A DNA stretch of 64,000 bases from Escherichia coli (GTDB lineage Bacteria; Pseudomonadota; Gammaproteobacteria; Enterobacterales; Enterobacteriaceae), in assembly GCF_030013595.1 (NCBI RefSeq), contig NZ_CP122768.1; one strand, 5' to 3'. Every line of letters begins with the position of its first letter. The stretch's first letter is position 1. Under the pieces are notes generated by a model. The model was not told the DNA's origin and ran no database searches. It saw nothing but the letters and a program-made list of their open reading frames with translations. The position numbers were made by a program, and so were the translations under genes. Shown piece after piece: positions 25,028 through 55,087 of the stretch.

Positions 25028-25031
25028 AGGG

Positions 25032-25373
25032 TTAGATCGACATACTCATCAGATCGTTAAATCCGGTGGCGATTTTGTTGCGCACCTGCACCAGCGCGGA
25101 GAACGAGAGCGATGCCTGCTGGCTGGCGATCATCGCGCCGGCCAGGTCATCGCTTTTACCCAGGTCGATTGCCGTTTGCTGCTGCTCCGCCACCTGCTGG
25201 AACTGGTCAACGTGACCGAGCGCACCGCTCATAATGCGGTTAAACGACACGTCCGGGTCGGTGGAACTGAAGGTCATGGCGGGCAGCACCGGTGCCTGGG
25301 CGTTGGCCTGCATCCGCTGCACGTCCTGCATGATTTGCGCCTGCATGGTGCTGTTGATTGTGGTAATGCTCAT
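25032..25373 (-). CDS. lfiE: Flagellar hook-basal body protein FliE
   Basis: 113 aa; FliE family. Confidence 0.85.
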   Translation of the reverse strand: MSITTINSTMQAQIMQDVQRMQANAQAPVLPAMTFSSTDPDVSFNRIMSGALGHVDQFQQVAEQQQTAIDLGKSDDLAGAMIASQQASLSFSALVQVRNKIATGFNDLMSMSI

Positions 25374-25387
25374 TTTTAACTTCCGGG

Positions 25388-26374: not shown

Positions 26375-26527
26375 AGGGTGAACGATATAAGTAGCGACAA
26401 TAATCAGGATGTTCTGAAGCGTATCACCGGCGGGATTAACAAGTTCGAATTAAACGATAATAAAAATATTATTTGATGGTAAACAATGAGTTAGATATTA
26501 ATACTGTTAATTTGGACATCTGTGATG

Positions 26528-26568
26528 CCCCCTCACCCTAACCCTCTCCCCGGATGGGGCGAGGGGAC
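26528..26568. repeat. GC-rich palindromic intergenic repeat, single unit
   Basis: cccctcaccctaaccctctccccggatggggcgaggggac in the lafK / lfiM divergent region. Confidence 0.8.
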
Positions 26569-26746
26569 AGACCGCAGACTGATTGGCGAAAATCACTCCC
26601 ATTAAGCAATTAATCGATTAATTATTTTTTCATCCTATTAATAATTTGCCCCTTTCACTCCCCCTCTATTTAATACCTCACCTTGTGTCACTGCCGGATT
26701 TGCGTGCACAAAATCGCCCATACCATTACAGCAGAGAAAGTAAGCC

Positions 26747-27598: not shown

Positions 27599-27962
27599 GC
27601 AAGAAGATATTTTAGCCGGGGATTTTGGCCTCACCGATGAAGTTGCGCCTGTCGCGAAATCCGCCGACGCTGAAACGCTGGTCACCCGCCTGGAAGACCG
27701 CTTTTCCGACTCGATGACGCTGCTGAAACGCATTCCGGTGACCTTAACGCTGGAAGTGTCGTCGGTGGAAATTATGTTAGCCGACCTGCTTAACATCGAC
27801 GACGACACGGTGATTGAGCTGGATAAGCTCGCCGGGGAGCCGCTGGATATCAAAGTGAACAATATCCTGCTGGGCAAAGCGGAAGTGGTGGTGGTCAACG
27901 AGAAGTACGGCCTGCGCGTGCTGGAGTTTAACACCCGCGATATCAACGACCTGGCACCATGA
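27591..27962 (+). CDS. lfiN: Flagellar motor switch protein FliN
   Basis: C-terminal SpoA/FliN domain; start ambiguous (ATG at 27591 overlapping the lfiM stop, or 27579). Confidence 0.8.
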   Translation: MSKQEDILAGDFGLTDEVAPVAKSADAETLVTRLEDRFSDSMTLLKRIPVTLTLEVSSVEIMLADLLNIDDDTVIELDKLAGEPLDIKVNNILLGKAEVVVVNEKYGLRVLEFNTRDINDLAP

Positions 27963-28711
27963 AACGCCGCACTCAACTGACGCTGGGCCTTGGGCTGCTG
28001 GCGCTTGCGCCGCTGGCGTTAGCCCAGGGTGGCGATATTGCGCTGCTTAACGTGGTCACCCACGGCAACACTCAGGAGTACAGCGTCAAAATCCAGGTGC
28101 TGATTCTGATGACCCTCGTCGGTTTGCTGCCGACGATGGTGCTGATGATGACCTGCTTTACGCGCTTTATTATCGTGCTGTCGCTGCTGCGCCAGGCGCT
28201 GGGGCTGCAACAAACGCCGCCAAACCGTATTCTGATTGGTATTGCGCTCTCACTCACCATGCTGGTGATGCGCCCTATCTGGCTCAATATTTACGACCAT
28301 GCGGTGGTGCCGTTCGAAAACGATCGGATTACGCTGACCGATGCGTTAAGCATCGCCGCGACGCCGCTGAAACGCTTTATGCTGGCGCAGACCGACAAAA
28401 AAGCGATGGCGCAAATCATGACCATCGGCGGCGCAAAGGGCAATGCCGCCGACCAGGATCTCTCGATTGTGGTGCCCGCCTATGTGTTGAGCGAGCTGAA
28501 AACGGCCTTCCAGATTGGCTTTATGATTTACATCCCGTTTCTGGTTATCGACCTGATTGTCGCCAGCGTATTGATGGCGATGGGGATGATGATGCTGTCG
28601 CCGCTGATTGTTTCGCTGCCCTTTAAACTGATGCTGTTTGTGCTGATCGACGGCTGGTCGCTGACAATCGGTACGCTCACCACCAGCATTCGCGGGCTGG
28701 GGCTGGGCTGA
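27959..28711 (+). CDS. lfiP: Flagellar export apparatus protein FliP
   Basis: 250 aa; signal peptide and TM segments. Confidence 0.9.
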   Translation: MKRRTQLTLGLGLLALAPLALAQGGDIALLNVVTHGNTQEYSVKIQVLILMTLVGLLPTMVLMMTCFTRFIIVLSLLRQALGLQQTPPNRILIGIALSLTMLVMRPIWLNIYDHAVVPFENDRITLTDALSIAATPLKRFMLAQTDKKAMAQIMTIGGAKGNAADQDLSIVVPAYVLSELKTAFQIGFMIYIPFLVIDLIVASVLMAMGMMMLSPLIVSLPFKLMLFVLIDGWSLTIGTLTTSIRGLGLG

Positions 28712-28713
28712 TT

Positions 28714-28986
28714 ATGTTGACCGTAGACGTAGCCGCCGACATTGTCGCGAGCGGCATTAAAGTGGTGATTTTACTGGTTTCGGTACTGGTAGTGCCAAGC
28801 CTGCTGGTTGGCCTGCTGGTGAGCGTGTTCCAGGCGGTGACGCAGATTAACGAACAGACCCTGAGTTTTTTGCCGAGGCTGATTGTCACGCTGGTGGTGC
28901 TGGGCGTGTGCGGCAAATGGATGATTATCCAATTGCATGATCTGTGTATTCATCTGTTTACCCAGGCCGCGTTGCTGGTGCATTAA
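28714..28986 (+). CDS. lfiQ: Flagellar export apparatus protein FliQ
   Basis: 90 aa, two TM helices. Confidence 0.9.
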   Translation: MLTVDVAADIVASGIKVVILLVSVLVVPSLLVGLLVSVFQAVTQINEQTLSFLPRLIVTLVVLGVCGKWMIIQLHDLCIHLFTQAALLVH

Positions 28987-28987
28987 G

Positions 28988-40426: not shown

Positions 40427-40539
40427 GTGGGTGTTGTGTTTAGGGCCGGGGAGAGTCGGGGTATGACTACGAAAGCCCCTAACTTAAACACGATATTACG
40501 CCAGAAGTCACCATTTCCAAAACACAACGCCGTTGTACC

Positions 40540-40773
40540 GTGGGATATCTGCCCAACAGCAGCGACACGCCGGTGATCAAAATCAGCGCCAAATGGCTGA
40601 GAGAAGCGGGATTTGAGATCGGCACGGGCGTTACCGTGAAGATCCCGGAAGGTTGCCTGATCCTGCTTGCGGATAACAACGGAGTACAGGAACTGAGGAA
40701 GGAACTTTATAAGGTTAAACAGGCTGTTAAGGGGATGCGTGACGGGATGTTTAGTGTGCTGAACGAAAGTTAA
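40540..40773 (+). CDS. SymE-family toxin homologue (AbrB-fold), N-terminus ambiguous
   Basis: PVIKISAKWLREAGFEIGTGVTVKIPEGCLILLA resembles the SymE core; homology continues upstream in frame to a stop at 40480; an ATG at 40463 is in a different frame. Confidence 0.5.
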   Translation: MGYLPNSSDTPVIKISAKWLREAGFEIGTGVTVKIPEGCLILLADNNGVQELRKELYKVKQAVKGMRDGMFSVLNES

Positions 40774-40780
40774 ATAATAA

Positions 40781-40816
40781 AAAAGCCGGGAAGATTTAAT
40801 TTTCCTCCCGGCTTTT
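40781..40816. terminator. Rho-independent terminator between convergent genes
   Basis: gccgggaag-atttaatttt-cctcccggc followed by ttttatttt. Confidence 0.7.
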
Positions 40817-40819
40817 ATT

Positions 40820-41068
40820 TTAGCTTAAAAGTATTTTTTCGATATATTCACTAACCTTTGAATTAACTCCTGATATATATTCATTATCTTTACCAGAGTA
40901 AAATTTTAAAGAACCTTCCAAATTATCATGAAGAACAAGAAGATCATAAGCAAGTAATTTTGGGATAAGCGAAGCACTTTGATAATCAGTCATTACTTTA
41001 TCAAGTGACATATATAGCCTATCAATTATGTTTGTATCTAAATCATCCGCTAATCTAATCATTTCCAC
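40820..41068 (-). CDS. Hypothetical small protein (82 aa, AT-rich)
   Basis: ORF with distinct AT-rich codon usage, bounded by the terminator and the IS end; no recognisable domain. Confidence 0.4.
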   Translation of the reverse strand: MEMIRLADDLDTNIIDRLYMSLDKVMTDYQSASLIPKLLAYDLLVLHDNLEGSLKFYSGKDNEYISGVNSKVSEYIEKILLS

Positions 41069-41107
41069 TACATCAATGTAAGCGACTCGTCAGAACCGTA
41101 TTGATAT

Positions 41108-42679
41108 TTACTGAGAGCTCAGATCAACTTTCCAGGGCAACAGATCGCGTACCCGGTTTGCCGGCCAGTCCTGGATATGTTCAATGACGTAACGCAGCCA
41201 CTTTTCTGGCTCCACATTGTTCAGACGGCATGTGCCGATCAGCGAGTACAACACCGCCGCATGTTCACCACCGCTGTCGGAACCCGCGAACATCCAGTTT
41301 TTCCGGCCTACGGCCACTCCCCGTAAGGCGTTCTCTGCGATGTTGTTGTCGATTTCCACCCAGCCATTACTGCAGTACACGTTCAGTGCATCCCACTGTT
41401 TCAGCAGGTATGCGAACGCTTTTGCCGTATCTGAGTGACGCGACAGTGTTTTCATCTGTTGCTGTATCCAGTCATACAGTGACTGCATCAGTGGCGCGGC
41501 TCTGGCTTTTCTTGCCGCCAGACGCTGTTCTGCTGAACAGCCCCGGACCTCTGCCTCGATGGCATACAGTTCACCGATACGCTGCAGGGCTTCCGTGGTG
41601 ATGTAGGTGGGCGCTCTTGCATGCACATCGTGGATTTTTCTCCGGGCATGAGCCATACACGCGGCTTCCGTTATTCTGCCGGATTCGTATAACGCCCGGT
41701 AACCACCGTAAGCATCGGCCTGAAGCACACCGCTGTAACCGGCCAGGTGATTTTGTGGATGGATACCTTTCCGGTCCGGACTGTACGCGAACCAGACCGC
41801 CGGGGGCATCTGTGAACCGGCGTTACGGTCATCACGGACGTAGACCCACAGCCGGGCTGTCCGGGTTTTACCGCTGCCCGGCTCCTGGACCGGGACGGGG
41901 ATATCATCAGCATGGACTTTACCGGGCATCAGCACATACTGGCGCAGGACGTCATACAGCGGCTCCAGCAGTTCAGCAACAGCACCTGTCCAGCGCCCCA
42001 GTGTGGCACGGCTCAGCTCCACTCCCTGACGACGGTATATTTCTGACTGGCGGTATAACGGCAGATGGTCTGCATATTTCCCGGTGACAACATGGGCCAG
42101 AAGCCCCGCTCCGGCATAACTGCGTGCAATGGGTTTTGAAGGTACTGGTGCCTGTACGATATGGTCGCACCGGCAACAGGCCTGTTTCGGACGTTGTGTT
42201 TCGATAACCTTAAAGGCGCTGCTGATAAGCTCCAGTTGCTCTGACACATCACATCCCAGAGAACTGAGTTCACCACCACAGGCAGGACAGCATTCCTCTT
42301 CCGGCCGGATAACCCGGGTTTCACGGGGAAGTGAGGCCGGTAACGGTTTACGGGCTGAAGACTGGCGCAGGGCGGATGGCAGTACCGGGTCATATTGCTC
42401 ACCCAGCGTTTCCGCCATTTCTTCCTGAAGTGCGCTGATTCGCTCCTGTGCTTCCTGTATCTGCCGTTCGGTTTTTGCACGAAGTTTTTCTGAGCTTTTA
42501 CCGAACTGCATACGTTGCAGTTTCGCAACCAGCGCCTTCAGCCGGTTGATTTCGGAAGCATAAGCCGCCACCCGCTGTGAGAGCAGGCGGTTGTATTCAG
42601 CCATCTGGCGGATGGTGTCCTGTTGCGTCTGCAACAGTGCCCGCAGGCGGGCGTTCTCATGAGCAAGTGAGGTGTCCAT
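41108..42679 (-). CDS. IS66-family transposase TnpC
   Basis: 523 aa; N-terminal coiled coil, Cys-rich zinc-finger region, DDE-type catalytic core. Confidence 0.9.
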
Positions 42680-42698
42680 ATCCTCACTTTACAACGGG

Positions 42699-43046
42699 TT
42701 ATATGCGGATTCCAGCGCGTTCCGTTCGTTTCGGGTGCTTCCAGTTGATACCTTCAAGAAGCATGGATAACTGAGCCGGAGTAAGGTGCACCTTGCCGTC
42801 ACGGGTGACTGGCCAGACGAAGCGGCCCCGCTCCAGGCGTTTGGTGAAGAGGCACAGTCCGTCACTGTCAGCCCACAACACTTTTATCTGGTCACCCCGG
42901 CGTCCGCGGAAGATGAACAGGTGTCCGGAGAACGGGTCATCCTTCAGGACGTTCTGAACTTTTGATGCCAGGCCGTTAAAGCCATTTCGCATATCGGTGA
43001 TACCTGCAACCAGCCAGATACGCGAACCTGCAGGGAGAGATATCAT
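42699..43046 (-). CDS. IS66-family accessory protein TnpB
   Basis: 115 aa; overlaps the tnpA stop. Confidence 0.85.
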   Translation of the reverse strand: MISLPAGSRIWLVAGITDMRNGFNGLASKVQNVLKDDPFSGHLFIFRGRRGDQIKVLWADSDGLCLFTKRLERGRFVWPVTRDGKVHLTPAQLSMLLEGINWKHPKRTERAGIRI

Positions 43047-43720
43047 CAGTGGCTGCTCCCTTTTATTTCGCGGATAAGTGTCTGTAATAACGCCGGCGTC
43101 AGTTTACCTTTAAGCCTGAGAGTTCCGGCCGGCAGAACCAGCTCACAACACAGACTGTCGGACGGTGTATTTATCTGCTCTGGTTCCTGTGCGGGGGCCG
43201 GGATTTTATTATCCGGCTCCGGCGTTAACGTCACGGGAAGCAGTGCCGGCATATTTTTTCCGGAAGGCAGCAGGCCACCTTTCCGGTATTGATGGCGCCA
43301 GTTGAAGAGCAGGTTATCGTTGATTCCGTTTTCCCGGGCGATCTGCGCCACACAGGCTCCGGGCTGCAGTGACTGCTCCACTAAGGCGATTTTAAACTCA
43401 TAAGGGAAGTTGGGCCGCCGGGGACGTTTTTTTACCACGGGGGCTTCGGATATAACGGTGCTTTCAGGACGTACGACTGGTACCGTGGAAAATTGTCCGT
43501 AAAGGCAGGCATCAAGTTCCTGCTCCGACATGCCTGCGGGCAAAGGCCACGAAAGGCCAGCTCTCCGAAAGCGCACGAACATACTACAAACTGTTGATTT
43601 TGGTACACCCAGGCGACGCCCGGCCACAACCCGGGGTAAATGTTCTTCAAAGTGAAGACGTAAAGCTTCAGTGATCCAGGTCCGGTGTTTCATACGATAG
43701 TGTCCATTAAAAATGGACAT
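43046..43720 (-). CDS. IS66-family accessory protein TnpA
   Basis: 224 aa; N-terminal HTH-like region; first ORF of the IS66 triplet. Confidence 0.8.
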   Translation of the reverse strand: MSIFNGHYRMKHRTWITEALRLHFEEHLPRVVAGRRLGVPKSTVCSMFVRFRRAGLSWPLPAGMSEQELDACLYGQFSTVPVVRPESTVISEAPVVKKRPRRPNFPYEFKIALVEQSLQPGACVAQIARENGINDNLLFNWRHQYRKGGLLPSGKNMPALLPVTLTPEPDNKIPAPAQEPEQINTPSDSLCCELVLPAGTLRLKGKLTPALLQTLIREIKGSSH

Positions 43721-43772
43721 TATTTTTGTAGAGCCGGAGGAAACAGACCAGACGGTTTAAATGAGCCGGTTA

Positions 43773-44237
43773 CTATTCAGCTTCATAAAGCTTTTTGAAC
43801 ATGGGGCTTTGATCCCAGGCGATCCCTTTGTAACGCTTCATATTTTTCCGCAATTCATCCTTTGAAAGATTCATAAAACGGATTTTTAATTTTTCATCGG
43901 TTTCAGTGTTGTAAACCAAATGTTCCATCCCACGCCAGGAGGACTCCAGTTTCTGAAATTCCGGATGACTCAGGATTAGTTTGATCTGCTCAGTTAATTT
44001 GAAATCGATCTGCTCAATAATCGCAGCAATACTTTTATAAGCGTCGTCACTGACGGTGACGGTATTTGTCAAAGCCTGTTGGGCCAGCGTCTGAACTGCT
44101 GCCTCAACAGCCTTTGCTGCCTGAGGTGTCTTGGGACGGAAGGCTTTATCCAGGAGCGAATCAAATTCAGTGTCCTGATAGGCAGTGGTTTGCGCAGCAG
44201 AGAGTTCGCCAGTCGCCAGAAGAGTATCGTTTACCAT
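43773..44237 (-). pseudogene. tssC: T6SS sheath large subunit TssC, 3'-truncated by the IS66 insertion
   Basis: Only about 154 N-terminal residues (ends ...SPMFKKLYEAE, which I recognise as the start of the conserved TssC core) before the IS terminal repeat creates a stop. Confidence 0.8.
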
Positions 44238-44261
44238 GAAAGTTCCTTAATAAAATCGCAG

Positions 44262-44807
44262 TTAGTCTGCTGTTCCCGTTTCACCTGATAAGACACTTTC
44301 CTGTTGAGCGACAGGTTTTGGCGCACTAGCCAGAGCTTTCAGTAACGTAGGGTCTTGTAATAGTTTGTTGATAAGATTTTCTGCTCCCGCTTTACCATCC
44401 ATGTAGGTTTGTAGGTTGGCAAGCTGAGTACGCGCTTCCAGCAGCTGGTTCAGGGCATCCACCTTACGGGCAATCTGCGCAGGCGAAAAATCGTCCATAT
44501 TCTCTAACGTGATATCGACCATTAACTGCCCTTCGCCCGTCAGCGTATTGGGGACAGCAAACGCCACGCGCGGCGCAATGGCTTTCATCCTCTCGTTGAA
44601 GTTATCGATATCAATATCAAGGAATTTACGATCGGTGACCGGCGGCAGCTCTTCACGCGGTTTACCCGCCAGGTCGGCCAGCACCGCCATGACAAACGGC
44701 AGTTCGATTTTTTTCTCGGAGCCGTAAATCTCAACGTCATACTCAATCTGCACGCGGGGCGCGCGGTTGCGGGCAATAAACTTCTGCGCGCTGTTGTTGA
44801 TAGCCAT
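44262..44807 (-). CDS. tssB: T6SS sheath small subunit TssB
   Basis: 181 aa; PRVQIEYDVEIYGSEKKIELPFVMAVLADL is the TssB signature. Confidence 0.9.
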   Translation of the reverse strand: MAINNSAQKFIARNRAPRVQIEYDVEIYGSEKKIELPFVMAVLADLAGKPREELPPVTDRKFLDIDIDNFNERMKAIAPRVAFAVPNTLTGEGQLMVDITLENMDDFSPAQIARKVDALNQLLEARTQLANLQTYMDGKAGAENLINKLLQDPTLLKALASAPKPVAQQESVLSGETGTAD

Positions 44808-44868
44808 AATCCTTCATTTCCTTATCAGTCAGCCGACGACCACCTGGGGAGTGGCCCGACGGTACAGT

Positions 44869-45159
44869 TTAAAAATCATACGCAGAGAGTATTTTTATAA
44901 TCTCTTTGTTTTCTTTGTACTTTTCCCGAAGCACAGGGAGTGATTTCTTCGCCGGAGGACACCAGGTATCAACCCCCTTTTCGATGTCTCTTTTATCCTT
45001 CTCTGGTAAAGAACTGTCCCATTCACCAGCAAGATGCTGGCACATTTCCGCATTACTCAGAAAATGCTGTACATCCTGTGGTAAAGACGGTTCCCCCTGA
45101 ACACTGAAAGCGAACATCATTAACAGGAATGTCCACAACACCGGATAACGAAATGTCAT
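44869..45159 (-). CDS. Small secreted protein, candidate immunity protein
   Basis: 96 aa; signal peptide (FLLMMFAFSVQG), two Cys; directly downstream of the M15 peptidase gene. Confidence 0.5.
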   Translation of the reverse strand: MTFRYPVLWTFLLMMFAFSVQGEPSLPQDVQHFLSNAEMCQHLAGEWDSSLPEKDKRDIEKGVDTWCPPAKKSLPVLREKYKENKEIIKILSAYDF

Positions 45160-45161
45160 AC

Positions 45162-45725
45162 TTAATGTCCATCAATTGACCAGTGGGGTATATCTGTATT
45201 TCCGCCTACAAATTTTCTGACGCCGTAACCCAGACCTACCGCCTGAAGCTGGGCATTCATTCCGGTTCGATGTAGTGTATTAATTGCAACATTCTGACCA
45301 TTGCTCCCCGCAATTGTTAATGTTCCGCTCCAACTGATATTCATATCTATCGCAGTACCGCGTGTATGGTTGGAGCTCAGTGCAGGCGCGACATTCAGAT
45401 TATTCATACCATAGGCCGTAACCATAGCCTGCGCCGCTTCAAGCGAGGCTTGCTCAGTCGGGTGAACCCACTCAATATCCACCCCCTCCATCGCCGGGAC
45501 GTTTTTTGCCTGAACGATTTCCTGAGCAATCAACCATGACCAGTGCATGAGATATGCTCTGGCGGGAGGGCGATATGTTGCAGAGATACTGACCCTTGCA
45601 CGCGCATTACCAAGCGCGCGCAAAAAATTATCTACCGATGCACGAAAAGTCCCCTGCAAATCATTAGTGGAAGAACTTCCAGGAAAGCGACTGACCCACA
45701 GTGCGCCACTTAATTCTTTTGCCAT
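45162..45725 (-). CDS. LAS/M15-family zinc peptidase, candidate peptidoglycan-targeting T6SS effector
   Basis: 187 aa, no signal peptide; SNHTRGTAID fits the SxHxxGxAxD zinc-binding motif; C-terminal IPHWS. Confidence 0.6.
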   Translation of the reverse strand: MAKELSGALWVSRFPGSSSTNDLQGTFRASVDNFLRALGNARARVSISATYRPPARAYLMHWSWLIAQEIVQAKNVPAMEGVDIEWVHPTEQASLEAAQAMVTAYGMNNLNVAPALSSNHTRGTAIDMNISWSGTLTIAGSNGQNVAINTLHRTGMNAQLQAVGLGYGVRKFVGGNTDIPHWSIDGH

Positions 45726-45737
45726 AAGGATGCTCCA

Positions 45738-48371
45738 TTAATCCGTTTCAAAAATAATCTGTTCATCCTCATCAACACGAATGCGGATTTGCGTGATGGC
45801 CGTTTTCTCTGTCATCGCCTGCAACCAATAACGGGACAGTTGTGGGAGGATATGTTGTTCGATATAGCCGATGAGCAAACGAGCGCCGGTCTCGTGCATC
45901 GGGCAGCGCGACACAATATGCGTAATCAGTTCATCGCCATACACCAGTGAAACGCCATGCCGCTCCGCCATCCGATCCATCAATCTGCCAAGATGCAGGC
46001 GGGCAATAACACCACGCGCGGTCTCATCCAGCGGTAAATAAGGAATAACCGTCACACGCCCCAGGAAAGCCGCCGGGAAGTGTTTACGTAACTCCGGCAT
46101 TAACGCCTCTTTTAACCCTGCCGAATCGGGCATCAGCGCCGGATCTTCACAGAGCTGGCTGATAAGTTCCGCCCCCGCGTTAGTAGTCAACAACAGCGTG
46201 GTATTTTTGAAATCGATGTGGACACCTTCGCCATCTTCCATCGCCCCCTTATCAAACACCTGGAAGAACAGCTCGTGGACGTCGTGATGGGCTTTTTCAA
46301 TTTCATCTAGCAATACCACGCTCCAGGGATGGCGGCGTACCGCTTCCGTCAACACACCGCCTTCGCCATAGCCGACGTAGCCGGGCGGCGCGCCTTTCAG
46401 AGTGGAGACTGTGTGAGACTCCTGATACTCGCTCATGTTGATGGTGATCAGATTCTGTTCACCGCCATAGATTGCTTCTGCCAGTGCCAGCGCGGTCTCA
46501 GTCTTGCCTACTCCGGACGGCCCGGCCAGCAAAAAGACACCCACAGGCTTACGCGGGTCACCTAAACCCGCCCGCGCGGTCTGGATACGCTCGCCAATCT
46601 GCGCCAACGCATCCATCTGCCCGGTAACACGCTGCGCCAAACGGGTGGGCAATTCCAGTATCTGACTGGCTTCATCTTTCACCATCCGTCCGGCGGGAAT
46701 ACCGGTCCAGTCGGAGACAATCTCTGCCACCACGGTTGCACTGACTTCCGGGTACACGACAGGGTTTTCACCCTGCCAGCCTCTTAATGCCGTTTCTGCC
46801 TGTTGTAGAGTGATTTCGTCGCGCTCGCCAGGCGCTGCGCCGCGTTGCTCCTGTAAACTGCGAACCAACTCCAGTTCCTGCTGCCACCGCGCTTCGGTGT
46901 CAGAAAGATCGGCATTAAGCGATATAATCCGCGCCGTCAGTACATCGCCCCGCTCCGAGCGGATACCCATTTTTTCCTGCTTTAATAACAACTCCTGCTC
47001 CAGTTCGGCAGCGTTGAGCTGCTGGCGCAGATACTGGACTCTCGCAGGCGGGGTATGCAGCGACAGCGCTACACGGGCCGCCGCCGTATCCAACAGGCTG
47101 ATGGCCTTATCCGGTAGTTGCCGGGCCGGAATGTAACGGTGAGAAAGCTGTACGGCGGCGCGCACGGCCTCATCAAGAATCAGGACATCATGGTGTTCTT
47201 CAAGCGTGGTGACTAATCCGCGCACCATCTCAACAGCCGCAACCTCTTCCGGCTCAGCAACCTGCAATACCTGAAAACGCCGGGTCAGCGCCGGATCCTT
47301 TTCGATATGGCGTTTGTACTCGCTCCAGGTGGTTGCGCCGATGGTGCGCAGAGTGCCACGCGCCAGCGCCGGTTTCAGCAAGTTGGCAGCATCCCCCGTA
47401 CCGGATGTACCACCAGCGCCCACCAGGGTGTGAACTTCATCAACAAAAAGTATCACCGGCTGCGCCGAGCGCGCGGCCTCTTCCAGCAAAGCTTTCAGGC
47501 GGGATTCAAATTCACCCTTCATGGACGCCCCAGCCAGCAGCGCTCCAACATCCAGTGACAGCAACCGCACGTTACGCAGTGAAGGCGGCACTTCCCCCCC
47601 GGCAATCGCCAGCGCGAATCCTTCCACCACTGCCGTTTTCCCGACCCCCGCCTCGCCGGTCAGCAGCGGGTTGTTCTGGCGACGGCGCAGCAGAATATCC
47701 GTCATAGTACGGATCTCGTGTTCGCGGCCGGTGACCGGATCGATATTGCCTTCACGGGCCAGCGCAGTCATGTCCTGGCAGTATTTCGCCAGCGCGGATT
47801 TACTTCCGGTTGATTCGCCGGCAAAGACCTGGCTAGCTTCCCCCGGTACTGCAGAATTTAAATCCGAGCCGTCATAAGGCATTTCTGTTAATTCAGGAGA
47901 TGAAGTGATTAAAGACGGAAGAATATCTAATAGTTCATCTACCGGTAGCTCTGCCAATGGCGCACAAATATTTTTTAACACCCGACACAATTCTGGCGTG
48001 GTTAACCAGGCAAGTAATAACCATCCACTACGAATTTTTTGATCGCCAAAGCGGATACTTGCCAACATCCAGGCTTTTTCAACAGAAAGATCGATATGAT
48101 GGGAAAAATCGTTAATTACACTCGCTCCGGCAGGCAATATATTCAATTGCTGAATTAACGCCTTCTCAACATCAGCAGATGTTATTTGATAATGTCGAAG
48201 CACATTGTGAATGTCATTCTCTGGTTGTTGTATTAACTGATGCAACCAATGCGTCAGTTCGACATAAGGATTAGCGCGTAATTTACAGAACGTCGTCGCA
48301 GATTCCAAAGATCTAAACAAAGATTTGGTTAGCTTTCCATACAGTGCACTGCGCGAAACAGGAGTGTCCAT
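45738..48371 (-). CDS. clpV: T6SS AAA+ ATPase ClpV (TssH)
   Basis: 877 aa; two AAA+ modules (GEAGVGKT, GPSGVGKT) and a ClpV-type N-domain. Confidence 0.9.
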   Translation of the reverse strand: MDTPVSRSALYGKLTKSLFRSLESATTFCKLRANPYVELTHWLHQLIQQPENDIHNVLRHYQITSADVEKALIQQLNILPAGASVINDFSHHIDLSVEKAWMLASIRFGDQKIRSGWLLLAWLTTPELCRVLKNICAPLAELPVDELLDILPSLITSSPELTEMPYDGSDLNSAVPGEASQVFAGESTGSKSALAKYCQDMTALAREGNIDPVTGREHEIRTMTDILLRRRQNNPLLTGEAGVGKTAVVEGFALAIAGGEVPPSLRNVRLLSLDVGALLAGASMKGEFESRLKALLEEAARSAQPVILFVDEVHTLVGAGGTSGTGDAANLLKPALARGTLRTIGATTWSEYKRHIEKDPALTRRFQVLQVAEPEEVAAVEMVRGLVTTLEEHHDVLILDEAVRAAVQLSHRYIPARQLPDKAISLLDTAAARVALSLHTPPARVQYLRQQLNAAELEQELLLKQEKMGIRSERGDVLTARIISLNADLSDTEARWQQELELVRSLQEQRGAAPGERDEITLQQAETALRGWQGENPVVYPEVSATVVAEIVSDWTGIPAGRMVKDEASQILELPTRLAQRVTGQMDALAQIGERIQTARAGLGDPRKPVGVFLLAGPSGVGKTETALALAEAIYGGEQNLITINMSEYQESHTVSTLKGAPPGYVGYGEGGVLTEAVRRHPWSVVLLDEIEKAHHDVHELFFQVFDKGAMEDGEGVHIDFKNTTLLLTTNAGAELISQLCEDPALMPDSAGLKEALMPELRKHFPAAFLGRVTVIPYLPLDETARGVIARLHLGRLMDRMAERHGVSLVYGDELITHIVSRCPMHETGARLLIGYIEQHILPQLSRYWLQAMTEKTAITQIRIRVDEDEQIIFETD

Positions 48372-48703: not shown

Positions 48704-49624
48704 ATGAAACCAAATATTACGTGGGGACTCCAAAAAATACAGGCGCACGGGATCGCCGATAACACAATTTACGCGACTGAAGGAACCCAAATTATCTTCA
48801 CCGTTACCTCCCCCTGGATTCCTGTTTTTGAGGTGAATGATGATGTAAAGATTGCCCTCAGTCTGACCCGCCACGAAGAAGCATGGTGGATTATCAATCA
48901 GTCTACCGAATATTGCTGTACGGTAAACGACCAGATTGTGGAACCTCATCACCGTATGCGTCTGAATGAAGGCGACCTGATAGAATGGGGGTTATCTTCA
49001 TGGTGCCTTGTGCACGGCAATCCATCATCTCCGGACCTGAGCGCAGTAAAAACGACATCGCAGACTGCCACCATGTCGGAAACAATAACCGAATATCTGG
49101 ATCTGGATTGGTTCAGGCAGCAGCATCTGACATCACAAAATCCATTCGATATCATTCCTGTTCATGGAGCCTCCTCCACTGGAGAAGATGCTAAAAAAGA
49201 AAATGCCCTGACTCGACTTTATCAGGAATACCGCGAGGCGTTGTTATCTCCTGAACAAGATCTTCATCGCCATGCTGATCCTTTTCCCTTTAACGAAGAG
49301 CCCTCCTCACAGGATCTGGATTCATTGCGTGATCTGGTCACTGAAGCCGAGACATTGCAGGATATGGTCACTGGCGGGTTAAGCATTGACGCTATTCTCG
49401 ATGTCCTGGACGCCACCGGCGAAGGGGAAACCGCCTGGCCTGCCGAAAAGACGCCCCCAGATATCCTGCACCTGCTATCCCCGGAATGCGCACCGGAAAC
49501 AGCGCATAACACCGTTCTGCCCGACCTGACACGCAAAGAGCATCGCATCATTGGCATTGACATTGACAGCCATTATCGGATAAACCCGGCACAACACGGA
49601 GAGATATCTCATGACAAACAATAA
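48704..49624 (+). CDS. T6SS-associated FHA-domain protein (TagH/Fha-like)
   Basis: 306 aa; N-terminal region resembles an FHA fold; heads the plus-strand T6SS operon. Confidence 0.55.
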   Translation: MKPNITWGLQKIQAHGIADNTIYATEGTQIIFTVTSPWIPVFEVNDDVKIALSLTRHEEAWWIINQSTEYCCTVNDQIVEPHHRMRLNEGDLIEWGLSSWCLVHGNPSSPDLSAVKTTSQTATMSETITEYLDLDWFRQQHLTSQNPFDIIPVHGASSTGEDAKKENALTRLYQEYREALLSPEQDLHRHADPFPFNEEPSSQDLDSLRDLVTEAETLQDMVTGGLSIDAILDVLDATGEGETAWPAEKTPPDILHLLSPECAPETAHNTVLPDLTRKEHRIIGIDIDSHYRINPAQHGEISHDKQ

Positions 49625-50441
49625 CGAGCTACCGGCTACCCTGTCGGCGCTGCTGCGGGATTATTCCGTGGCGGAGGGCATTCAAATGGCAGAACAGCAG
49701 GTCAGGATGCACCCGGCGCAGGCCTCCCGCCGCCACAGCCTATTTCAGTTATTGTGCGTGGCAGGCTACTGGTCGCGGGCACTGCAACAGATCCAGCTAT
49801 GCGCCCGGATGGACGCAAATTATACCCGCGAAGCGCAGGTATTTGGCGAGCTGATACGCTGTGAGATATACCGCCACGCCTGCTTTCAGGGAGAACAGCG
49901 GCCCGATTTTATTCTCCCGCCGCCCGCCTGGATGGAGGATCTGCTGACCGCCCTCGCCTGTAACGCTCGTGGTGAAGCGCAGGAAGCTGACGCCCACCGC
50001 AGCCGCGCACTTGAGGCCATAACAGATACTGCAGGGCAGTGGAATGGTGGCGCATTTGACTGGATTAGCGACAGCGACTCCCGTACCGGTCCGGTACTCG
50101 AACTCATCGCGGGCGGAGTATATATCTGGCTGCCGTTTTCACAAATCTGTTCGCTAAAATCGCCGCGGCCTGCGCATCTGACCGATTTGATCTGGAAACC
50201 CGTCAACGTCACACTGAATAATGGCGACACACACAGTGCCTGGCTGTTTTCCCGCTACAGCGGCTCTGAAAAGGCTGCCGACTCCCTGCGTCTGTGCCGG
50301 GAAACGGTCTGGCAGGACGGGCCGGGAGAGACTCTGGTACAGGCGCTGGGTCAGAGGGTGTGGCTCACCGGTCACGGCGATATCAGCCTGCTGGATTTGT
50401 CCACCTGTACCTTTAACACCGCTGAAGGAAGCGACGCGTGA
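49611..50441 (+). CDS. tagJ: T6SS accessory protein TagJ (ImpE family)
   Basis: 276 aa; pattern LFQLLCVAGYW ... GPVLELIAGGVYIWLPF matches ImpE/TagJ. Confidence 0.7.
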   Translation: MTNNNELPATLSALLRDYSVAEGIQMAEQQVRMHPAQASRRHSLFQLLCVAGYWSRALQQIQLCARMDANYTREAQVFGELIRCEIYRHACFQGEQRPDFILPPPAWMEDLLTALACNARGEAQEADAHRSRALEAITDTAGQWNGGAFDWISDSDSRTGPVLELIAGGVYIWLPFSQICSLKSPRPAHLTDLIWKPVNVTLNNGDTHSAWLFSRYSGSEKAADSLRLCRETVWQDGPGETLVQALGQRVWLTGHGDISLLDLSTCTFNTAEGSDA

Positions 50442-50932
50442 GCGCTTCCCGCCAGCGTCCGGGCAATCACCTGCTGCCCACGCTGTTTGACCGCCTGTGT
50501 GATGATGCCCCAAACCAGAAACGCGACCACGATATCAGCGTCAGCCCGGTTCAGCTTAAGGAGATCATTCGCCGGGATTTGTCATTTCTGCTCAACACCG
50601 TCAGCCATGAAGATGATATTGATGCTGCACGTTATCCGGACGCGGCAGCGTCCGTACTGAACTACGGCCTGCCGCCACTGGCGGGCAGCTTTCTGTATGA
50701 ACACAAGTGGGACGATATTCGCAGGGCCATTTTGCGTACCATCATCCGGTTTGAACCCCGGCTGAAAGCGTCCACCCTGCAAATCATCCCACTTCAGGAT
50801 GAGCGCCACCAGAGCGGCCATAACACATTACAGTTTGAAATTCGCGGCGAGATCCTCACGCAGCCCTACCCGATGGCATTCCGGGTACGCAGCGCGCTGG
50901 ATATGGAACAGAGCCGCATTACGTTTTTTTAA
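50438..50932 (+). CDS. tssE: T6SS baseplate protein TssE
   Basis: 164 aa; LLPTLFDRLCDD N-terminal motif; GTG start overlapping the tagJ stop. Confidence 0.8.
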   Translation: MSASRQRPGNHLLPTLFDRLCDDAPNQKRDHDISVSPVQLKEIIRRDLSFLLNTVSHEDDIDAARYPDAAASVLNYGLPPLAGSFLYEHKWDDIRRAILRTIIRFEPRLKASTLQIIPLQDERHQSGHNTLQFEIRGEILTQPYPMAFRVRSALDMEQSRITFF

Positions 50933-50947
50933 TTCAGAGAGAAACCG

Positions 50948-52830
50948 ATGGATCCACGGCTACTGGAATACTACAACCGCGAACTGAGCTATCTGCGGGA
51001 AACGGGAGCCGAATTTGCCGCCCGTCATCCTAAAGTCGCCGCCCGACTGGGTATGCAGGGAACGGATATTGCCGATCCGTATGTGGAGCGAATGGTCGAG
51101 GCCTTCAGCTTCCTGACCGCCCGCACGCAGCTAAAAATTGACGCTGAATTCCCCCGTTTCACCCAGCGTCTGCTGGAAGTGGTCAGCCCCAATTACGTCA
51201 CACCCACGCCCTCAATGAGCGTGGCGCAGCTTCATCCCAATCCGGAAGAAGGCGATCTGGCGAAGGGATTCACCGTCCCGCGCAACACGGCCTTTTTTTC
51301 CGCCATTCCGGAAGGCGAAAGTACCGCCTGCCAGTTTCGTAGCAGCCAGAATGTGACGCTGTGGCCGCTTGCCATCGAAGAGGTGCGGCTGACCGCCGCG
51401 CCGCCGGATATGCCTGCCCTGCACCGCTACCTGCCAGCCAACATTCACGTCGCTGGTGCGCTGCGTATTACCCTGCGCACCTTTGGTGAACTGACGTTCA
51501 GTCAGCTTGCAGGGCTGAACAAGCTGCCATTTTATCTCTGCGGCGAGGAGCGCACGGCCTCACACCTGTTCGAACTACTGCATACCAGCGCCATCGCGAG
51601 CCTGGCTGGCATTCCGGGGCATTTTGACGGCGCACTGGATGTGAATCTGAAACAGCCCGTTATGTACGAAGGCCTGGATCCGGATCAGGGACTGTTGCCG
51701 CTGGCGTGGAATGTGTTTCACGGCCATAACCTGCTACATGAATATTTTACCTGTCCGGAACGCTTCTTTTTTTCACCCCGACAGGCCTGTCTGCCGGGTT
51801 ACAGAAAATTAACGGCGGCGTGGCGGAGATTGTTATCCTGCTGAACCGCCTGCCGCCGGACTGGCTGATCCACCAGACAAACGCGGCACAGTTCAGCCTG
51901 TTCTGTACCCCGGTTATCAACCTGTTTCCCCGCGTCGCCGCCCGGATCGATGTCACGCACAGCACGACGGAACAGCATCTGGTGGTGGACAGAACCCATC
52001 CGCTGGATTATGAGGTGTTCTCGGTCCAGGAAGTGGAAGGGCTGGAAACTGACACCACACGGAAGATGGCCTTTCGCCCGCTCTACCACACCCGCAATAA
52101 TGATGAAGGCAATCACGGACGTTATTTTTCCCTGCGCCGGGAGCCGCGCCGGTTGTCGGAAAATGCCCGCCGCTATGGCACCCGCACCTCCTATACAGGA
52201 TCAGAAGTGTTCCTGTCGCTGGTTGACCAGTATGAAGCGCCGTACCCGGAAAATCTGCGCCATATCACCATCACGGCTATGGTCACCAACCGCGATCTGC
52301 CCTGTCTTATTGCCCGCAATGGACGGGACGATCTGACCGTGGATGCGGCCATCCCGGTGGCGGGCGTGGGGCTTATCCGTCCGCCGCGTCCGCCGCAGCC
52401 TCCGCTGGCTGAACGTGAAATGGCCTGGCGGTTGATCCGCCAGTTATCCTTTAACTATCTGCCGCTGGCCGATCTGGATCACCGTACCGGTGGTCAGGCG
52501 CTGCGCGATCTGCTTAACCTGTTTATTCCGGCGCATGACAGTCCGCAGTCGCGCCAGGTGCGCAGCCTGATTGGCTGCAACACCACCCCGGTCACCCGCC
52601 GTCTGCCCGGTTCCGGGCTGCTGGTCTATGGGCGCGGCGTCAGTTGTGAACTGACCGTGGATGAGGAGGGGTTCTCCGGTATCAGTCCGTATCTGTTCGG
52701 TCTGGTGTTGGAGCACTATATCGCCCGTCATGTTTCCATTAATACCTTCTCGCAGATGACGCTGCACAGCATGCAGCGCGGCAAAATTATGACCTGGCCT
52801 GCCAGGGCGGGACAGCGGGGAAGCGTATGA
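50948..52830 (+). pseudogene. tssF: T6SS baseplate protein TssF, frameshifted in a T7 homopolymer (51767-51773)
   Basis: Two overlapping ORFs (50948-51844 frame 2; 51820-52830 frame 1) together give a TssF-length protein; an eighth T would restore ...ERFFFFTPTGLSAGL... Confidence 0.7.
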
Positions 52831-53822
52831 GCGACGATTTCACTCAGGCGCAGGAAACCCCCTGGCGTTACGGTTTTCTGAACCTGATGCGCCGCGTGGA
52901 TGTGCAGTTGTGTACTGTTCCGGCAGGCAACACCTGGCAACCACGGATGGAAAAATTTCGCCTCGGACAAACTCCCGCGCTGACCTTTGCGCCACGGGAA
53001 ATCGCCAGTGTGAGCTGGCAGGAAGAGCGGCTGCACATCAGTTTGTACAGTCTCGGGCTGTGGGAGCCGAACGGTCCACTGCCGCTGCACTACACCGAAC
53101 TGGCGCGCAACCGGACTGAAAGCCGAAGAGACCCGACGCTAACCCGTTTTTCTGATCTTTTTCATCACCGCTGGCTGACGCAGTTTTACCAGGCATGGCG
53201 CAGCGCCCAGTCCGCTGGGGGCGGTCTGGATAAACCACAACATGACCGTTTTGCCTTTTATATCGCCAGCCTCAGCGGGCAGGATTTGCGGGAGAGCGCC
53301 GACAGCCCGTTGCCGGATCACGCTCGCCTGGCGGCATCGGCCCATCTGGTGCGTGAGTCCCGCAATCCGGACGGTCTGGCCACCACGCTGGCGCACTATT
53401 TCGGTGTACCTTTCCGGATACAGGAGTATGTCCTGCACTGGATAGCCGTGGCGGACGATGAGATCACCCGGCTGGGGATGCCAGCCCCCTCTTCCGTTAT
53501 TGGCAACGGTGCACTCATCGGCCAGGCCGTGCCGGACATGCAGTATAAGTTCCGGCTGGTTATCGGCCCGCTGACGCTGGAGGATTACCGACGTTTTCTG
53601 CCTGGCGGCAATAACCTGCCAGTCCTGACAGAACTGGTCCGCGCCTTTAGCGGTTTTGAATACTGCTGGGAAATTGAGCTACAGCTAAAGCCCCACGCCG
53701 CCCCTCCGGCTGTTACCGGTGGTTCGTACCAACTGGGCTGGACCGCATGGGCGGGTAAAGCCATGCACGAAAACCCGGTGACGGGCATGATTTTCGAACC
53801 AGAACACTACCTGGCGCACTGA
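52827..53822 (+). CDS. tssG: T6SS baseplate protein TssG
   Basis: 331 aa after tssF; TssG-like N-terminus. Confidence 0.8.
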   Translation: MSDDFTQAQETPWRYGFLNLMRRVDVQLCTVPAGNTWQPRMEKFRLGQTPALTFAPREIASVSWQEERLHISLYSLGLWEPNGPLPLHYTELARNRTESRRDPTLTRFSDLFHHRWLTQFYQAWRSAQSAGGGLDKPQHDRFAFYIASLSGQDLRESADSPLPDHARLAASAHLVRESRNPDGLATTLAHYFGVPFRIQEYVLHWIAVADDEITRLGMPAPSSVIGNGALIGQAVPDMQYKFRLVIGPLTLEDYRRFLPGGNNLPVLTELVRAFSGFEYCWEIELQLKPHAAPPAVTGGSYQLGWTAWAGKAMHENPVTGMIFEPEHYLAH

Positions 53823-53832
53823 GGATAATTTA

Positions 53833-54879
53833 ATGGATACATCCCTGTCTGACCCAATTTCGGCAGAATGCCCCTGCGGCCCGGATCTGGAGTACGATCC
53901 GGAATACCTGCTACTGTTCACGCGCGCCGCACCGCGTGAAGAAGCGCAATACGGCGATTTTGTCAGTACGCCGGAAACCATTAACTGGGCGGAGCTTGAG
54001 CGGGATGCCTGCCGACTGCTGACGCGCAGCAAAGATATCCGCATTCTGGTTGTCCTGCTGCGCTGCCGTATCCAGCAGGCCGGTGCCAGGGGACTGGCGG
54101 AGGCGCTCGCGCTGCTGGAAACGTTGTGCGCCACGTACCCGAACGCCATCCATCCTCAACTGCTCGCGACTGAAGATATCACCGCCGAAGAGGCGGCAGT
54201 GGCACGTAGTAACGCCCTGGCGGCGTTGCTGGACCATGAAGGCGTAATAGCGGATATTCGTGGCATTACACTGTCAAACAATGCTGCCATACGCCTTCAG
54301 GTACGGGATGTGGAGCGTTCGCTGTCTGCATCACGCCCGGCGGATGCGCTGGCACCAGAATCGGTACGCCAGCAACTGGCCGACCTGGAGGCGCGCGGCA
54401 CACTGCCGCTGGATGCCTTTCGCCAGGCCGCAGAGACCACTGAGCGGCTGCAACGCCATGCGCGTGAAACGCTGAATGACCAGGCACCGAACCTATCCCG
54501 TCTGACACAATTGCTGGCCCTGTTGCCGGGAGCGATACGGACCACCACGCCGGAGATCCTGCCACAACCAGTGGCTGAACAGCCGGAGAGCACCACCATC
54601 GTTCATACTGAACAGATATCATCAGAGCAGATTGCGCTACCGGTGCATATCGCGGAGGAAATATCACCGATGTCCGGCGCAGACCCCCGGCAGATCCGCG
54701 ACCGGAACGACGCGCTGGAACGCCTGCGTGTCATCCGTCGCTGGTTTGAGCACAGCGAACCGAGCAGCCCGACCATTCCTTTGCTGCGCCAGGCAGAACG
54801 CCTGGTCGGAAAACGCTTCTCGGAGGTAATAAATGAAATTCCAGTAGAACTGCTGGAAAAATGGGATGCGCTGGAGTAA
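53833..54879 (+). CDS. tssA: T6SS protein TssA (ImpA N-terminal domain)
   Basis: 348 aa; ImpA_N-type motif CGPDLEYDPEY; gagga ribosome-binding site. Confidence 0.8.
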   Translation: MDTSLSDPISAECPCGPDLEYDPEYLLLFTRAAPREEAQYGDFVSTPETINWAELERDACRLLTRSKDIRILVVLLRCRIQQAGARGLAEALALLETLCATYPNAIHPQLLATEDITAEEAAVARSNALAALLDHEGVIADIRGITLSNNAAIRLQVRDVERSLSASRPADALAPESVRQQLADLEARGTLPLDAFRQAAETTERLQRHARETLNDQAPNLSRLTQLLALLPGAIRTTTPEILPQPVAEQPESTTIVHTEQISSEQIALPVHIAEEISPMSGADPRQIRDRNDALERLRVIRRWFEHSEPSSPTIPLLRQAERLVGKRFSEVINEIPVELLEKWDALE

Positions 54880-55010: not shown

Positions 55011-55087
55011 TGGCGGAACGGACGGGACTCGAACCCGCGACCCCCTGCGTGACAGGCAGGTATTCTAACCGACTGAACTACCGCTCC
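55011..55087 (-). tRNA. aspV: tRNA-Asp (GUC)
   Basis: Reverse complement is the 77 nt E. coli tRNA-Asp, GGAGCGGTAGTTCAGTCGGTTAGAATACCTGCCTGTCACGCAGGGGGTCGCGGGTTCGAGTCCCGTCCGTTCCGCCA. Confidence 0.95.

Follow-up and report, generated by a model that had tools for sequence, protein, structure and literature searches.

The window analysed in the present study, a 64,000-nt stretch of Escherichia coli DNA (contig NZ_CP122768.1, assembly GCF_030013595.1), carries the remains of a Type VI secretion system (T6SS) island between yafV and the tRNA-Asp gene aspV, the features of which are collected in Table 1. A single insertion sequence (IS) divides this region. On the yafV side, the interval up to the IS contains solely a SymE-family toxin gene and a truncated small open reading frame, while on the other side approximately 12 kb of the T6SS island persists up to aspV and retains, beyond a remnant of tssC, the genes tssB, clpV/tssH, tagK, tagJ, tssE, tssF, tssG, and tssA. 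TagK matched NF033418 with 547 bits. Regarding the two hypothetical genes retained next to tssB, the 96-aa product has a signal peptide-like N terminus, and the 187-aa product gave a weak hint of Peptidase_M15_4 (E=0.12), with nothing otherwise usable in Pfam or NCBIfam. The tssF gene is broken by a 1-bp difference at approximately 51766, at which a run of seven T residues in the window corresponds to eight in the relative.

Table 1. Features of the yafV-aspV region and their positions in the window
Feature	Position	Strand	Basis or remark
yafV	39647..40426	+	left chromosomal bound of the island; 100% identity to yafV of HCP5S3_I2
SymE-family toxin gene, 77 aa	40540..40773	+	distal end of the Rhs array; outside the deletion
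5'-truncated copy of a 97-aa gene	40820..41077	-	full-length at L005 960-1253
left flank ACATCAAT (site T2)	41070..41077		directly adjoins the deleted DNA in the intact relative
ISCro1-like IS66-family insertion sequence, 2,696 bp	41078..43773	-	single copy in the window
terminal inverted repeat, tnpC end	41078..41099		
tnpC, IS66-family DDE transposase, 523 aa	41108..42679	-	NF033517, 478 bits (cut-off 180)
tnpB, IS66 accessory protein, 115 aa	42699..43046	-	NF033819, 129 bits (cut-off 50)
tnpA, IS66 accessory protein, 224 aa listed	43046..43720	-	NF038385, 296 bits (cut-off 150)
terminal inverted repeat, tnpA end	43752..43773		
tssC remnant, codons 1-154 of 504	43773..44237	-	TIGR03355 profile positions 3-132 of 473
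right flank TATTCAGC (site T1)	43774..43781		8 bp duplicated around the simple insertion in PK-F-10122
tssB, intact	44262..44807	-	TIGR03358, 190 bits (cut-off 97)
two retained genes (96 aa, 187 aa)	44869..45725	-	hypothetical in the annotation of relatives
tssH/clpV, retained	45738..48371	-	annotation of the near-identical relative
tagK, tagJ, tssE, tssF, tssG, tssA, retained	48704..54879	+	annotation of relatives
aspV (tRNA-Asp)	55011..55087	-	right bound of the island; ARAGORN and annotation of the relative

The IS is an ISCro1-like member of the IS66 family. Its three consecutive genes, tnpA, tnpB, and tnpC, each scored above the curated NCBIfam cut-off, and relatives of tnpA are annotated at 215 or 225 aa. 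The terminal inverted repeats, GTAAGCGACTCGTCAGAACCGT and GTAACCGGCTCATTTAAACCGT, are imperfect, agreeing at 16 of 22 positions, and both start with GTAA. The tnpA/tnpB/tnpC layout and termini starting with GTAAGCG are shared with ISCro1, and one SNP and a 3-bp indel separate the element from the copies in strains PK-F-10122 and E04, which carry the RefSeq name ISCro1 family. The window copy measures 2,696 bp versus 2,699 bp, one ATG being missing from an ATGATG repeat upstream of tnpA. This 3-bp difference was considered as the footprint of a nested IS3-family element and rejected after reading the junctions; the nested element occupies the canonical ATGATG form of the IS. ISCro1 is widespread in E. 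coli. It was first named in Citrobacter rodentium ICC168, in which it expanded to 24 copies (PMC3072379).

As a reference, we used E. coli HCP5S3_I2 (NZ_CM149870.1; locus L005), a near-isogenic strain with an intact yafV-aspV island. Identity to this strain is 100% over window positions 39861-41077, up to the IS, and 99.98% from the IS onward (43774-48362). The breakpoints, at L005 positions 1217 and 27944, both coincide exactly with the IS termini; the intervening 26,726 bp is absent from this junction and has no match elsewhere in the window. The lost block comprises the Rhs/immunity array, an ankyrin-repeat gene, a DcrB-like chaperone gene, vgrG, tagF, tssM, a Tlde1-domain gene, tssL, tssK, tssJ, hcp, tai4, tae4, and the 3' part of tssC. 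An earlier reading of the window, made from the sequence only, had proposed that most of the T6SS island was deleted and that hcp, vgrG, tssJ, tssK, tssL, and tssM were missing; the alignment now maps the endpoints of the deletion, which removed approximately 69% of the native island DNA, and all six genes fall within the lost 26,726 bp at this locus. We place the probability that an IS-associated deletion of the T6SS core is real at roughly 0.97. A known example of an aspV-linked T6SS island is Ec042-0210 to 0226 of EAEC 042 (PMC2808357). The window resembles this type of island in its location between yafV and aspV and in the eight T6SS genes listed above, and the intact relative further shares hcp, tssJ, tssK, tssL, tssM, vgrG, and an Rhs effector with it; in contrast, only approximately 31% of the native DNA is left in the window and tssC is truncated.

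Both ends of the deletion cut into genes. The tssC frame ends at the IS terminus, as had been noted, with 154 native codons being kept out of 504; the 3' 350 codons, two-thirds of the gene, are lost, while the full-length gene is present in L005. The TAG stop codon of the stub spans the junction and is composed of two native bases and the final base of the IS. On the opposite side, the 97-aa gene lacks codons 1-12 (36 bp), and the window matches it only to L005 position 1217. Since the missing parts of both cut genes are within the absent block (L005 1218-27943), the change was a loss, not a gain. The function of the 97-aa gene is unassigned; neither Pfam nor NCBIfam yielded a family for it, one member of its cluster bears the source-assigned name colicin immunity protein, and it is probably an orphan immunity gene. 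The SymE gene matched the NCBIfam SymE model with E=2e-9, below the curated cut-off, and because the annotation of the intact relative contains an identical copy, it is untouched and no product of the deletion event. The sequence-only reading was, therefore, correct in placing an 82-aa ORF and a SymE-like gene before yafV, but not in calling the former an orphan, as it begins at an internal GTG of the 5'-truncated 97-aa gene, or the latter a remnant, as the deletion left it unaffected.

A target-site duplication is absent around the IS because its 8-bp flanks, ACATCAAT and TATTCAGC, differ; re-inspection did not reveal a matching pair, in accordance with the previous observation. All of the other ISCro1 copies inspected (13/13) possess a duplication of 8 bp (9 bp in two), namely TATTCAGC, ATATTACG, CTTTATCA, and ten more, and the missing duplication is thus attributable to a later rearrangement, neither to a different element nor to a family quirk. 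A deletion terminates at the window copy, which is why it lacks the target duplication present at its sister copies. In PK-F-10122, an unrelated strain, a simple ISCro1 insertion occupies the same tssC site in the same orientation with TATTCAGC duplicated. E04 was examined as a strain sharing the left junction and was rejected; it carries a simple ISCro1 insertion by a paralogous SymE gene at another locus, with ATATTACG duplicated. The sister strain HCP5S3_I2 harbors a newly inserted ISCro1 copy in tagK, which is intact in the window, with a CTTTATCA duplication, and this copy is equal to that of the window over the 2,638 bp aligned. ISCro1 is active in this lineage.

Identical left and right junctions were found in dozens of public assemblies, and independent assemblies with both junctions (L007, L008, L013, and L015) include contigs of 3.4 and 4.7 Mb. 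The 154-aa TssC stub was present on 43 contigs, and comparably many carried the truncated small ORF. A search of complete E. coli genomes (n = 5,426) did not yield the left junction. Since the same two junctions recur in dozens of assemblies, the deletion allele is a clonally inherited marker and no assembly artefact. In one assembly (GCA_021649585.1, L009), the IS is at T1 with a different left flank, and all 60 SNPs in this IS lie in positions 8-1733, with none in 1734-2696; the element is chimeric, which shows that IS-IS recombination occurs at this site. Another locus, L014, was considered as an independent insertion at ACATCAAT at the rhsC locus and was rejected because it belongs to a member of the clone rearranged through SymE paralogues; in its flank, identity to the sister strain is 99.9%, with mismatches confined to SymE.

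The earlier reading had named an adjacent deletion and recombination between two IS copies as possible mechanisms; the event itself is supported, and both routes are still candidates that lead to the same final sequence. We prefer recombination between two copies, to which we give an even chance. By this route, ISCro1 would have transposed into tssC of the aspV-linked island at TATTCAGC, as the right junction suggests, a further, identically oriented copy would have entered ACATCAAT at a distance of 26.7 kb, within the small gene at the distal end of the Rhs array, and homologous recombination between the direct copies would then have excised the intervening DNA, which would leave a single IS with one half of each target duplication at either side. 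TATTCAGC is a genuine insertion target because PK-F-10122 has a simple insertion there. No genome was found to contain two copies bracketing the segment or a duplication-flanked ISCro1 at ACATCAAT. With a second copy at T2, the sequence would read as the right end of the IS followed by ACATCAAT and AATAGTTTT, and an exact scan of JGI metagenomes returned nothing for the right end joined to ACATCAAT and the reference or for the 3' part of tssC joined to TATTCAGC and the left end. Intermediates with the tssC allele of the clone were also sought by looking up six predicted C-terminal TssC fragments as exact matches; of the three that exist, two stem from a different tssC-tssG deletion lacking an IS and the third from a frameshifted gene, and none from the simple-insertion state. 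No chimerism was seen in the window IS, which is uninformative because this copy equals that of the sister strain over the aligned length. A further point against the two-copy route is the low prior probability of a second, correctly oriented insertion within one particular 27-kb interval, barring local hopping of the IS, and a one-step intramolecular transposition would yield exactly the same final sequence.

Intramolecular transposition in general is a serious competitor, which we rate at somewhat below even odds. In its simpler form, to which we assign a lesser likelihood, the tnpC-side end of an ISCro1 copy residing in tssC at TATTCAGC would have attacked ACATCAAT at a distance of 26.7 kb within the same molecule, and the DNA between would have been lost as a circle. 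This one-step adjacent deletion predicts the structure observed, in which both IS termini are intact, one flank is retained, the opposite flank is a new AT-rich 8-mer, and a duplication is lacking; it requires one prior insertion only, a state that exists naturally in PK-F-10122, and ACATCAAT is AT-rich, as are the other sampled targets. Nevertheless, the duplications at all 13 other copies indicate that duplication-less events are infrequent, the fragment look-ups and metagenome scan gave no intermediate with this tssC allele, and a literature search found no account of the transposition mechanism of IS66-family elements or of adjacent deletions by them. To our knowledge, the chemistry of IS66-family transposition, including an intramolecular reaction, has not been established. 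Intramolecular replicative transposition has been described for IS26 (PMC4471558), whereas direct support at the present locus exists for the recombination route only, in the form of the chimeric IS of L009. The order may also have been reversed, with the IS arriving at ACATCAAT in the 97-aa gene and its tnpA-side end then entering tssC at TATTCAGC and deleting the DNA between; this leads to the same final sequence, and strand transfer chosen by the transposase is plausible at TATTCAGC, which is evidently a favored target, having been struck independently in PK-F-10122. We consider this order unlikely: the T1 junction is common to clone members with different left flanks (L009 and possibly L006), so the tssC junction is more easily read as the older, fixed one, and a T2 insertion was not seen outside the clone, the apparent exception, L014, being a clone member. 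An assembler may also have collapsed two IS copies around an intact 26.7-kb segment, since repeats of 2.7 kb are collapsible in short-read assemblies and the homopolymer-length difference in tssF hints at imperfect consensus quality. The recurrence of the same junctions in several independent assemblies, multi-megabase contigs among them, together with the origins of the C-terminal TssC fragments of this allele, none from a simple-insertion state, makes such an artefact very improbable.

The tssC site itself is a recurrent target. The same 8-bp site was struck independently and in the same orientation in two tssC alleles, which differ 15 bp from the IS at one side and 21 bp at the other and belong to separate islands, one at the tRNA-Asp gene aspV and the other at aspU. 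The thirteen sampled targets suggest a loose consensus only, an A just before the duplication followed by NNTTNANN. We tentatively raise the idea, which we hold to be rather doubtful, that ISCro1 is far more selective in its targets than IS66-family elements are assumed to be. The recurrence could reflect a structural hot spot in tssC, or it could reflect repeated selection for the inactivation of T6SS.

The set of 13 core genes, tssA to tssM, is incomplete at this locus: tssC is truncated, tssD/hcp, tssI/vgrG, tssJ, tssK, tssL, and tssM are absent, and tssF is frameshifted. The locus cannot give rise to a T6SS apparatus, and the deletion renders the aspV T6SS of the clone non-functional. Several effector-immunity pairs are also gone, including Tae4/Tai4, the Tlde1-domain gene with its neighbor, and the Rhs array; the clone would be unable to attack via the aspV T6SS or to resist the matching toxins of its relatives.

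The loss of T6SS by deletion or IS insertion has been reported in E. coli ST410 and ST131 (Cummins et al., 2023, PMC10711316), and the inactivation of T6SS1 of E. coli W by a mobile element is mentioned as a cited case in PMC6730261. As in these cases, a chromosomal T6SS with vgrG and rhs was inactivated by a deletion of approximately 20-27 kb or an IS, and, as in known T6SS losses, the change is clonally inherited and detectable by its junction sequences. In ST410, the deletions have no mobile element at the junction, whereas an IS is located exactly at the deletion scar in the window; ST131 has an insertion without a deletion, and the lineage and endpoints of the window also differ. A lone IS, non-matching half-duplications, and two flanks collinear with the intact reference are features of textbook IS-mediated deletions. 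The type of event is already known and represents ordinary genome decay; current understanding is unchallenged and the consequences are modest. The two junction sequences provide exact markers for following the clone in public data. The locus and its relatives form a series of successive rearrangements seeded by one IS copy; besides the deletion, the series comprises a chimeric IS whose flank is new, insertions of nested IS3 elements, and an exchange through SymE paralogues.

The insertion sequence that cuts tssC carries three genes on the minus strand, encoding IS66 TnpA, TnpB, and an IS66 transposase, each of which scored above the curated NCBIfam cut-off. Its terminal inverted repeats are imperfect, with matches at 16 of 22 positions and GTAA at the start of both. 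Near-identical copies are labelled "IS66-like element ISCro1 family" by RefSeq, and the copies in two unrelated strains differed from that in the window by one SNP and a 3-bp indel; no second copy was present inside the window. ISCro1 has already been described: C. rodentium carries an expanded set of copies (PMC3072379), and the element has also been noted in E. coli ST131 (PMC8764528). The tssC gene starts to the right of the IS on the minus strand. The sequence-only reading, in which this gene is cut at the IS end and no target duplication is present, was confirmed in every element: 154 native codons are kept of the 504 in intact tssC, the TAG stop of the stub is composed of two native bases and the terminal base of the IS, and the 8-bp flanks were ACATCAAT at the left junction (tnpC end) and TATTCAGC at the right junction (tnpA end). 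Of 13 further ISCro1 copies from complete E. coli genomes, 11 were flanked by perfect 8-bp duplications and the remaining two by 9 bp, or by 8 bp with one boundary ambiguous. Unrelated flanks are thus exceptional and point to a rearrangement after insertion. The 13 duplications (flanks in loci L026-L035, L001, L002, and L005) were AT-rich and suggested a loose consensus, with T at positions 3-4 in 10, A at position 6 in nine, and often A immediately 5' of the duplication.

The 651-bp stretch separating yafV from the IS found a complete match in only two of 5,426 complete genomes, at 100% identity in each case, namely the pig isolates HCP5S3_I2 and LCP30S3_I5. HCP5S3_I2 (NZ_CM149870.1; locus L005), the yafV-aspV island of which is structurally complete, is almost isogenic with the window, and alignment to it placed both endpoints of a missing segment between two collinear blocks (Table); the remaining alignment, out to mltD, was at least 99.86% identical. 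The reference is continuous across both breakpoints, the two breakpoint sites in it share no similarity, and the deleted DNA had no match anywhere else in the window. The absent segment contains the missing portions of both IS-truncated genes, and the event was therefore a loss.

According to the annotation of the HCP5S3_I2 record, the lost segment carries the initial 12 codons of a 97-aa gene; three Rhs fragments accompanied by small ORFs of presumed immunity function, a gene with ankyrin repeats, a full-length Rhs gene, a DcrB-like gene, and vgrG; a tagF fragment, a glucosaminidase-domain gene, and tagF; tssM, a Tlde1-domain gene, tssL, tssK, and tssJ; hcp, tai4, and tae4; and the 3' 1,051 bp of tssC. 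The collinear flanks and the presence of tssM, tssL, tssK, tssJ, hcp, and vgrG in this segment support the interpretation as an IS-associated deletion. The proposal that most of the T6SS island was removed holds for 69% of its native DNA (about 38.6 kb with IS copies subtracted), but about 12 kb survives to the right of the IS, comprising tssB, two unknown genes, clpV, tagK, tagJ, tssE, tssF, tssG, and tssA, followed by aspV. Two gene assignments to the left of the IS needed revision. The 82-aa ORF taken for an orphan is the 97-aa gene in truncated form, its listed start being an internal GTG, and the SymE-like "remnant" is a SymE-family gene that is not a remnant of the deletion because it is identical in the intact relative. 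Profile searches gave no match to the 97-aa gene; its 90% cluster has further members in Escherichia, Proteus, and Phytobacter, one of which was named colicin immunity protein by its source, in keeping with an orphan immunity gene ending the Rhs array.

Coordinates of the features discussed (L005, HCP5S3_I2; L007, L009, and L014, assemblies of the clone)
Feature	Window	Other locus	Remark
ISCro1-like IS	41078-43773		2,696 bp
Left collinear block	39861-41077	L005 1-1217	zero mismatches
Right collinear block	43774-48362	L005 27944-32532	one mismatch
Deleted segment		L005 1218-27943	26,726 bp
tssC target site	43774-43781		ISCro1 also in PK-F-10122, orientation matching
hcp		L005 25390-25875	internal stop
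IS3-family element upstream of clpV		L005 32544-33772	
ISCro1 plus nested IS3-family element in tagK		L005 34731-38853	
IS3-family element nested in ISCro1	~43713 (equivalent)	L005 37369-38795; L007 about 8517-9940 (reverse complement)	just upstream of tnpA
IS at the L009 tssC junction		L009 950-3645 (reverse complement)	
Region compared with L014	40487-41203		mismatches only within 40492-40711
Region compared with GCA_021649405.1	33773-54236		99.995% match
Two conserved genes between tssB and clpV	44869-45725		96 aa and 187 aa
tagK 3' end	49555-49560		in-frame 6-bp insertion (CATTGA) vs HCP5S3_I2
Split tssF	51760-51770		ORFs 50948-51844 and 51820-52830
tRNA-His call (ARAGORN)	52613-52706		94 nt
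Second flagellar cluster	~20400-33000		

The exact 154-aa TssC stub was found on 43 contigs of public assemblies and the truncated small ORF (in 80-, 63-, 82-, and 84-aa forms) on a comparable number. Because several assemblies spanned both junctions (contigs of 3.4 and 4.7 Mb among them, and GCA_021649405.1, which matched the window at 99.995% over the region compared), and the exact 40-base left junction was present in every locus recovered via the small ORF, a collapsed-repeat artefact is excluded and the deletion allele is shown to be a clonal marker; an artefact or other origin is very improbable. None of the 5,426 complete RefSeq genomes had the left junction, and the right junction occurred in one, the chicken isolate PK-F-10122 (L001/L003, NZ_CM148631.1). 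In this strain, a perfect TATTCAGC duplication borders ISCro1, and both the 3' part of tssC and the entire downstream T6SS are intact, a structure that is the one expected before a deletion. PK-F-10122 is not ancestral to the clone: the aligned block (the IS and the T6SS genes to its right) was only about 95% identical overall to the window, its tssC departs from the clone allele at 15 bp from the IS on the right side and at 21 bp on the left, and its island is not linked to aspV, which directly follows yafV in this strain, but is bounded by a truncated dkgB and the other tRNA-Asp gene, located downstream of the rRNA operon. The two tssC insertions are therefore independent, and TATTCAGC is a genuine, recurrent ISCro1 target. 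This reuse of an identical 8-bp site is the only mildly unexpected point, and hints at target selectivity of ISCro1 or repeated selection against the T6SS.

The observed sequence is produced exactly by two routes, between which the flank sequences cannot discriminate. In one, to which we assign a probability of about 0.5, direct ISCro1 copies at TATTCAGC and ACATCAAT would recombine, leaving one IS bordered by half of each duplication. Counting against this route, the second insertion would have had to fall within one particular interval of 27 kb. Recombination as a process active at the tssC locus is favored by the clone member L009 (GCA_021649585.1). All 60 differences between its IS and that of the window fall within positions 8-1733, positions 1734-2696 being free of them, such that the tnpC-end 1.7 kb is 3.5% diverged and the tnpA-end 0.96 kb identical; the L009 IS is a clear chimera, indicating recombination with a diverged IS66-family copy elsewhere. 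The left flank of the L009 IS is new (CAATAATT) and adjoins a further IS66-type tnpA/tnpB fragment. In the other route, a single ISCro1 copy in tssC would undergo intramolecular strand transfer into the other site with release of the intervening DNA. This is possible and somewhat doubtful, since literature searches yielded no report of IS66-family elements making adjacent deletions, and we know of no such demonstration; the same transposition in reverse order is unlikely. The IS of the window equals the tagK copy of HCP5S3_I2 over the 2,638 bp alignable and is thus uninformative on the route, and intermediates were not found in complete genomes, protein-indexed assemblies, or JGI metagenomes.

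IS-flanked deletions lacking target duplications are textbook events. The aspV T6SS island is known from EAEC 042 and many other strains (PMC2808357), lineage-specific T6SS loss in E. coli has been documented as deletions of about 20 kb or IS insertion (PMC10711316), and one T6SS cluster of E. coli W was inactivated by a mobile element (PMC6730261). The present deletion is a new, cleanly mapped instance of an already known type of event. The "intact" island of HCP5S3_I2 is itself decaying, with the interrupted hcp and tagK and the IS3-family element upstream of clpV, and this lineage may already have been able to dispense with the T6SS. The IS3-family element nested in ISCro1 has opposite orientations in the tagK copy of HCP5S3_I2 and the tssC copy of L007, representing two independent hits at one spot.

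Further rearrangements were observed in this region. In the clone member L014 (GCA_012931135.1), the IS, the truncated ORF, and the SymE 3' end are fused to another SymE 5' part and to ybgA-phrB-dtpD (the rhsC locus), which implies that SymE paralogues about 0.5 Mb apart exchanged sequence. Three metagenome contigs (L022-L024; ERZ12289704, ERR5947532, and ERZ12302774) carry a different, IS-less deletion that joins tssC to tssG (CCGCCTA/CAGGAG), with a tssC breakpoint that lies just 9 bp away from the target of ISCro1, and takes out the half of the island retained in the window.

In the surviving half, tssF is split by a T7 run, vs T8 in the sister genome HCP5S3_I2; an intact 627-aa TssF was called in all seven other clone assemblies examined, and the T7 run reflects either a frameshift private to this genome or a sequencing error in the homopolymer. 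The tRNA-His called within the tssF coding sequence is almost certainly spurious. Of the two conserved products encoded between tssB and clpV, the smaller has a signal-peptide-like N-terminus, and the larger has an SxHxxGxAxD-like stretch and only a weak match to Peptidase_M15_4 (E=0.12); the pair may represent a putative peptidoglycan-hydrolase effector and its immunity protein. Upstream of yafL-fadE-yafV, the annotation of the near-identical relative indicates a second flagellar cluster (fliE-I, fliM/N-like, fliP-R, flhA, flhB, and a sigma-54 activator), which corresponds to Flag-2, a locus missing in many E. coli.
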